Part shown: one piece after another, positions 37,761-38,620 of the stretch | Numbering within the stretch: position 1 is the first letter of the stretch | How the letters are laid out: the number at the start of each line of letters is the position of its first letter | Source of the DNA: Escherichia coli | GTDB taxonomy: Bacteria; Pseudomonadota; Gammaproteobacteria; Enterobacterales; Enterobacteriaceae | Assembly (NCBI RefSeq): GCF_030013205.1 | Contig: NZ_CP122648.1 | Length of the DNA stretch: 64,000 nt | Direction: 5' to 3' (one strand) | Notes under the pieces: generated by a model | Database searches by the model: none | Seen by the model: only the letters and a program-made list of their open reading frames with translations | What the model was told of the DNA's origin: nothing | Position numbers and translations under genes: made by a program

Positions 37761-38620
37761 TTATGCTGCTAATAATCTATCCAGTGACTGCTGAGCAATA
37801 ACCAAATGCTGACCGCCAAATAACCTTGCACGATTTAACAGCGTGTAGAGTTGGTAAACCGGTTGACGTTCAAGGAAATCGGCAGGTAGCGGGGATACTG
37901 ACTGATAGCCGTCATAGATTTGTGGCGGCTGTTCAGTATGCAGCGGTAACATCGCCAGGTCGCACTCTCGGTCACCCCAGTAGCAGGCCGGGTCGAAAAT
38001 GTACGGGCCATCCGGACCCAGCGCACAGTTGCCGGACCATAAATCGCCGTGCAACAGAGAAGGCTGCGGTTGATGCGAGGCCAGACGCTGCTGAATATGC
38101 TCGACGATGGCATCGATATTGCCGAAAGCGATCCCTTTTTCTGCCGCCAGTTCCAGCTGCCAGCCAATCCGTTGTTCAGCAAAAAAGTTGACCAGCGACG
38201 TTGCCAGGTGTTGGGCTGGGGAGTTGTGGAGAGCGCGTTATCAAAATCGAGGCCAAATTGCGGTTGGTCGCTCCATTGATGTAAACGCGCAATTTGCTGA
38301 CCAAGAATAAATGCGCTATGCGCATCCAGCGGGCGAGGTGGGAGATAATCCATCACCAGAAAACTGTAGTCACGGTCAGCGCCAACTGCCCAAACCTTAG
38401 GCACGGTGACGGTTTTACTACGCGACAGTAACTCCAGTTGGTCGGCTTCGGCGGTAAAACCGGGAAGCAGTTCCCTTTCATCACATTTGACGAAAAAGTC
38501 ACGTCCTGCATAGCGCAAATGCCATGCGGCATGGACTTCTCCGCCAGGCAGTTCATTACGCAGTTCGATTTCGCCTTCACCTAACTGCTCGCTCAAAAGA
38601 CGACTGATTGCCTGCCACAT
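37761..38620 (-). pseudogene. yniA: fructosamine/ketosamine kinase-family protein with -1 frameshift
   Basis: N-terminal part in ORF 37835..38620, C-terminal part (HGDLWSGN kinase motif) in ORF 37761..38054 in another frame; frames cross at A6 run 38181-38186. Confidence 0.75.

Follow-up and report, generated by a model that had tools for sequence, protein, structure and literature searches.

A Single-Base Homopolymer Deletion in yniA of a Porcine Escherichia coli Genome: Probable Nanopore Under-Call Rather Than Inherited Pseudogene

The yniA Locus and Its Surroundings

The stretch of DNA analysed here, termed the window (64,000 bases), carries at yniA a gene of the fructosamine/ribulosamine kinase family whose reading frame is lost after codon 146, at a six-base A/T run (Table 1). 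YniA is a ribulosamine/erythrulosamine-type kinase with a presumed role in protein deglycation. The run reads C-AAAAAA-G on the plus strand (positions 38180-38187), and the six T's of the gene sense (T6) occupy gene positions 435-440. As the initial annotation had proposed, one missing A/T splits an open reading frame of about 286 amino acids; adding one T to the run yields 861 nt and a protein of 286 aa that is the same as WP_000267670.1, annotated in the genome CFSAN018748. Translation also bore out the two further statements made there, namely that the N-terminal ORF runs out of frame after ..NTWQRRWSTF and that the motif HGDLWSGN lies in another frame, where it forms part of a separate ORF. 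In all relatives the locus is annotated as yniA, called “frameshifted” by the PGAP pipeline in assemblies with six bases and intact (WP_000267670.1) in the others.

The restored 286-aa protein matches the Pfam family PF03881 over residues 1-285 (E = 1.4e-117; 392.5 bits against a cut-off of 22.4) and spans profile positions 1-287 of 288, that is, it is a full-length member of the family. The fragments as they stand in the window cover profile positions 1-154 (N-terminal part) and 191-287 (the ORF holding HGDLWSGN), the match on the 261-aa ORF being limited to its residues 1-153. The window as given therefore lacks an unbroken ORF spanning the catalytic loop HGDLW...N, which the addition of one T supplies. 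Because the split precedes the catalytic loop, the product encoded by the six-base allele would be expected, from its sequence, to be inactive. The closest solved structure to the restored protein is a putative fructosamine-3-kinase (PDB 3JR1, E = 4e-71).

Table 1. Positions of yniA, its fragments and other features of the window.
Feature	Position	Strand	Remarks
IS1397 (IS3 family)	1516-2864		Between topB and gdhA
Intergenic T7 run	20844-20850		About 150 bp upstream of spy
hxpB (yniC)	36368..37037	-	Extra C (gene sense) at 36869, following gene position 168, in codon 57
yniA (fructosamine/ribulosamine kinase family)	37761..38620	-	860 nt, against 861 nt in intact orthologues
C-terminal yniA part, shifted frame	37761..38180	-	Catalytic-loop HGDLWSGN, residue 191 of intact protein
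Separate ORF with the HGDLWSGN part	37761-38054		
N-terminal ORF of yniA, 261 aa	37835..38620	-	ATG start; 146 YniA residues, then 115 out of frame
Frameshift site	38181..38186		A6 on plus strand, T6 in gene sense; seven bases in orthologues
Gene adjoining yniA (PGAP: ghoS)	38726-39016	-	Pfam PF11080
espL1 (type III effector)	41418-43316	-	Intact
pheM, pheST operon leader peptide	47140-47184	+	Intact
Region with hok/gef gene, ogr/delta-like gene and truncated P2-like tail genes	~51300-64000		
hxsDBCA, His-Xaa-Ser radical-SAM system	~52162-55559		
ISCro1 (IS66 family) insertion	~55900-58515		

Several other features of the window were recorded along with yniA. The adjoining gene, which we take to be ydiZ of K-12, carries the PGAP name “ghoS, type V toxin-antitoxin endoribonuclease antitoxin”. 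Since the annotation shows no ghoT-like toxin gene next to it, the gene may be a paralogue that owes its name to homology alone. The espL1 gene is a pseudogene with an internal stop in EC556, a Japanese member of the clade described below, and is split in some public contigs. At the place of the region that ends the window, EC556 has another prophage, which is more complete. The IS1397 element has its normal programmed frameshift.

Indels in hxpB and the Intact Leader Peptide pheM

The initial annotation had counted yniA as one of three single-base indels within about 10 kb, together with yniC (hxpB) and pheM, and had read them as either ongoing, Shigella-like pseudogenisation or localised sequence error. 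The indels in yniA and hxpB are present, and pheM drops out of the list: its sequence is identical to that of annotated relatives, the 14 encoded residues are the same as WP_001386830.1, and its T7 run is a normal stretch of Phe codons. Across the 64-kb region of an annotated twin, yniA and hxpB are the only genes that PGAP calls “frameshifted”, and the four further pseudogene flags mark truncated fragments at the prophage/IS end; of Shigella-like mass pseudogenisation there is no sign in this region.

The hxpB frameshift is an inserted C (+C) that lies outside any homopolymer, and it was found in 19 of 5,426 complete E. coli genomes. Seventeen of these carriers belong to the clade of 18 genomes to which the window belongs, the other two being A20 (from a bat) and cS51a (human). 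Within the clade the carriers comprise 11 genomes from a single project (PRJNA917806) together with K_EC180, EC556, EC571, EC581, W13-16 and P15-25, leaving CFSAN018748 as the sole clade genome without the insertion. They come from Belgium, the Netherlands, South Korea and Japan and from at least five submitting groups: K_EC180 is from Korea, EC556 is recorded from Japan, and the two O139:H1 genomes W13-16 and P15-25 were submitted separately. Being common to 17 of the 18 clade genomes across this range of countries and submitters, the hxpB insertion makes a true pseudogene passed on by descent, and it may serve as a marker of the clade. Because pheM is intact, and because the hxpB lesion is real, distinct from that in yniA and passed down through the clade, the idea that decay clusters locally is rejected, and the supposed three indels consist of one real indel, one probable artefact (yniA, see below) and one misreading.

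Distribution of the Six-Base and Seven-Base Runs

The yniA locus was found in 5,423 of the 5,426 complete genomes. We searched this collection for the T6 allele as an exact 34-mer and for the seven-base allele (T7) as an exact 35-mer, T7 genomes being counted by word-11 blastn. The T6 34-mer occurs in six genomes, five of them from PRJNA917806 (ETEC1738, ETEC1748, ETEC4068, ETEC6333 and ETEC1701, the lineage of ETEC1738 being 1.2% divergent). The sixth is Nord8, a human isolate from outside the project, and a literature search for its sequencing platform did not find it. The exact T7 35-mer is present in 1,492 genomes, and another 3,886 match it over the full length with a difference at one position; in the sampled rows this difference was a substitution that left seven T's in place. 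Even on the conservative assumption that all 94 project isolates are in the collection, the enrichment of T6 in the project has a Fisher's p of about 8e-9.

The window falls in a highly clonal set of 18 genomes obtained from pigs with post-weaning diarrhoea or oedema disease, a porcine STEC clade of serotype O139:H1 (a label carried by two of the 18), of which 11 come from PRJNA917806 and seven from other laboratories. All seven of the latter (CFSAN018748, K_EC180, EC556, EC571, EC581, W13-16 and P15-25) have seven T's. The alignment to intact orthologues that the initial annotation had named as a check is thereby answered in its favour, the orthologues being in frame with seven bases and none of these independent clade genomes having six. 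In the clade as a whole T6 occurs in four of 18 genomes, all from the one project, which is not the distribution of an inherited lineage pseudogene. Restricted to the clade, the contrast between project (4/11) and other genomes (0/7) is not significant (p = 0.11).

Near-Identical Assemblies That Differ at yniA

Comparison of sister assemblies places the two states of the run side by side on the same background. Between the window and ETEC4079, the length of the yniA run (six vs. seven) is the single difference in 64,000 bases, and between the window and ETEC1748 there are two SNPs and one indel in 64 kb. None of the 5,426 genomes equals the window in full, and it probably stems from a further sister isolate of PRJNA917806 that is not among them. 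ETEC1748 (six) and ETEC4067 (seven) show no SNPs in 50 kb, differing by two homopolymer deletions in ETEC1748, one of which is that in yniA. Likewise, ETEC6333 (six) and ETEC6334 (seven) differ by the yniA base alone in 41 kb, and seven SNPs common to these two separate both from the window. Three near-identical pairs are thus split at the yniA base, so that six bases occur on three SNP backgrounds, in each case alongside a twin with seven. Such discordance among near-identical assemblies is inconsistent with the SNP phylogeny, as is expected when a homopolymer is under-called. Near-identity to a project genome is not in itself specific to the project, as the Korean strain K_EC180 has no SNPs against the window over 41 kb.

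Other runs of the window were seen to vary in the same set of assemblies. The intergenic run upstream of spy is T6 in ETEC1748, ETEC6333 and ETEC6334 and stays T7 in the window, ETEC4067, ETEC4079, K_EC180 and EC556. We considered it as independent evidence of nanopore noise and found it weak for this purpose, for its T6 form is also present in 97 complete genomes, many of them of another lineage; the variation at this run comprises both real polymorphism and assembly noise. Relative to the window and EC556, K_EC180 lacks one C at two places, at 28083 (a C7 run) and at 36343 (C4 in CCCCTGG, which contains the Dcm motif CCTGG). Both deletions recur in nanopore-looking contigs of the Logan assemblies, and the two sites appear to be further systematic weak spots of long reads that affect K_EC180 and not the window.

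Occurrence of the Frameshift Product in Public Contigs

An exact match to the 261-aa frameshift product was found on 317 public contigs, Logan assemblies for the most part, and the product falls in a cluster of 51 variants from several lineages that includes VTQ22037.1 and EGE64495.1. Most of the T6 contigs returned have a common ST69-like background, for which the complete genomes are T7 and show no SNPs against the T6 contigs. Six of these contigs were compared with the finished genome FDAARGOS_1289 over 12-21 kb, and four of the six (L018, L019, L020 and L023) carry other one-base homopolymer deletions, one of which splits the essential gene thrS. A change from C7 to C6, equal to one of those in K_EC180, is found in each of L018, L019 and L020. 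Judged by these deletions, the four contigs resemble long-read data in which identical systematic errors recur. The remaining two, L022 (SRR6072698, with six similar places and no other indel in 20.8 kb) and L024, are clean, and a minority of genuine T6 alleles probably exists. We had regarded the Logan contigs as short-read proof of a real allele, an argument that was dropped given that most of those examined carry deletions of the nanopore type; it was kept for SRR6072698 and perhaps for ERR15941358.

Sequencing Technology and the Most Probable Origin of the Frameshift

The ETEC strain names match those of Vereecke et al. (2023; PMC10151945), where the project assemblies are described as R9.4.1 nanopore data obtained with rapid barcoding, basecalled with Bonito 0.4.0, assembled with Trycycler and polished with medaka 1.5.0 without short-read polishing. 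The authors reported an accuracy of about Q50 on the control strain ATCC 25922 (PMC10151945), which corresponds to about one error per 100 kb; the one or two differences per 41-64 kb that we see between sister assemblies are of comparable magnitude. In the Trycycler paper, over 80% of residual errors lay in homopolymers, with systematic basecalling as the cause, and 78.5% of the differences between assemblies made by different users from the same data were one-base homopolymer discrepancies (Wick et al., 2021; PMC8442456). In another study, deletion errors were concentrated in A/T runs.

The change in yniA is a single-base deletion inside a homopolymer of the length concerned (about six bases or more), enriched in a long-read-only project and absent from independently sequenced relatives, Nord8 and SRR6072698 being the exceptions. 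Sister assemblies disagree on the six-base run, a single nanopore-only project accounts for most of its occurrences in complete genomes, and clade genomes sequenced elsewhere lack it; taken together, these findings favour sequence error for yniA, the second of the two possibilities raised by the initial annotation. The comparison with hxpB points the same way, as the +C insertion is spread through the clade regardless of laboratory and the scattered yniA deletion does not behave like this real inherited frameshift. We therefore consider it highly probable that the yniA frameshift is an assembly artefact caused by under-calling of the homopolymer in nanopore data, the platform of the window itself being deduced from its relatives. 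The true run would have seven T's, of which an error in the R9.4.1 nanopore-only consensus dropped one: the basecaller would systematically under-read this run, so that the polished consensus comes out as six or seven isolate by isolate. The window would then derive from PRJNA917806 or from similar data, its reads would support seven bases, and the organism would possess an intact and ordinary YniA kinase of 286 aa.

If so, one weak homopolymer has given rise to “frameshifted” yniA calls in five RefSeq genomes of the project and in a sixth record, Nord8, and through it the 261-aa chimeric protein has entered public protein collections on the scale described above. Arguments for host adaptation, as in porcine STEC or Shigella-like lineages, draw on counts of pseudogenes and are helped by separating artefacts from real lesions; the case also calls for caution about false pseudogenes that enter RefSeq annotation and protein databases. 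Were the yniA allele real, it would mean only the loss of a dispensable repair kinase.

Alternative Explanations

The alternative that survives best is a genuine and very recent slipped-strand deletion from T7 to T6, which would make the six-base form a sporadic null allele of the dispensable yniA. Runs of seven bases are natural slippage sites. The occurrence of the same frameshift product in several lineages, on the 317 contigs and in the 51-variant cluster, would fit such an origin, as would the contig family of SRR6072698, otherwise free of indels over 20.8 kb, and the presence of T6 in Nord8, outside the nanopore project. Against this, slippage would have had to happen at least three times independently within one clone, each time in an isolate with a twin at zero SNPs in 41-64 kb and all within one nanopore-only project; at a population frequency of 0.1-1% for the allele, three discordant pairs out of three have a probability of about 1e-8 to 1e-5. 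The sister pairs without SNPs give no sign of a mutator background, and most of the T6 contigs examined bear other errors of the nanopore type. A real deletion is thus unlikely, though it retains some weight. The same low probability attaches to its wider form, where slippage truly recurs at the T7 run of yniA and generates natural null alleles time and again, as in SRR6072698 and Nord8, and the isolate of the window is a real recent knockout or a mixed population.

A phase-variable tract, with cultures that mix six-T and seven-T cells and a consensus that flips between isolates, would also scatter the two alleles among sister isolates if switching were frequent. However, for a contingency tract in repair-proficient E. 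coli a run of seven is short, and exact T6 is confined to six complete genomes as against the 1,492 with exact T7 and the 3,886 that are one position off. The window moreover contains 24 runs of seven or eight bases, and apart from the one intergenic run the others are invariant between sister pairs. With the orthologues in frame at T7 and the tract so short, we regard phase variation as very improbable.

Least credible of all is that programmed ribosomal frameshifting, or else slippage in transcription, at the U/T run lets the six-base allele give full-length YniA. The frame change does coincide with a slippery homopolymer; however, longer runs are used at known slippage sites, no stimulatory element is expected, and the orthologues are in frame with T7 and show no conserved frame change, a comparison on which we rejected the idea.

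Comparison with Known Systems

With respect to the YniA/fructosamine-3-kinase family (PF03881, PDB 3JR1), the repaired protein is a full-length member with the catalytic loop HGDLWSGN, unlike the ORF of the window, which splits after residue 146 and before that loop. Lineage-specific frameshift pseudogenes of the hxpB +C type offer a second comparison. In both cases an indel of one base disables a metabolic gene that is not essential, but the hxpB insertion lies outside a homopolymer, follows the phylogeny and is seen by several laboratories, and the yniA deletion has none of these three properties.

The closest likeness is to the known homopolymer errors of R9.4.1 long-read-only assemblies. 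Here too a single base is deleted from a seven-base A/T run, sister assemblies disagree, and the outcome is a false “frameshifted” pseudogene; the pipeline of PRJNA917806, Trycycler followed by medaka, is that of the known error type. What differs is that the yniA deletion recurs at one site in at least six assemblies (five records and the window), and this points to a context-specific weak spot, not random noise.
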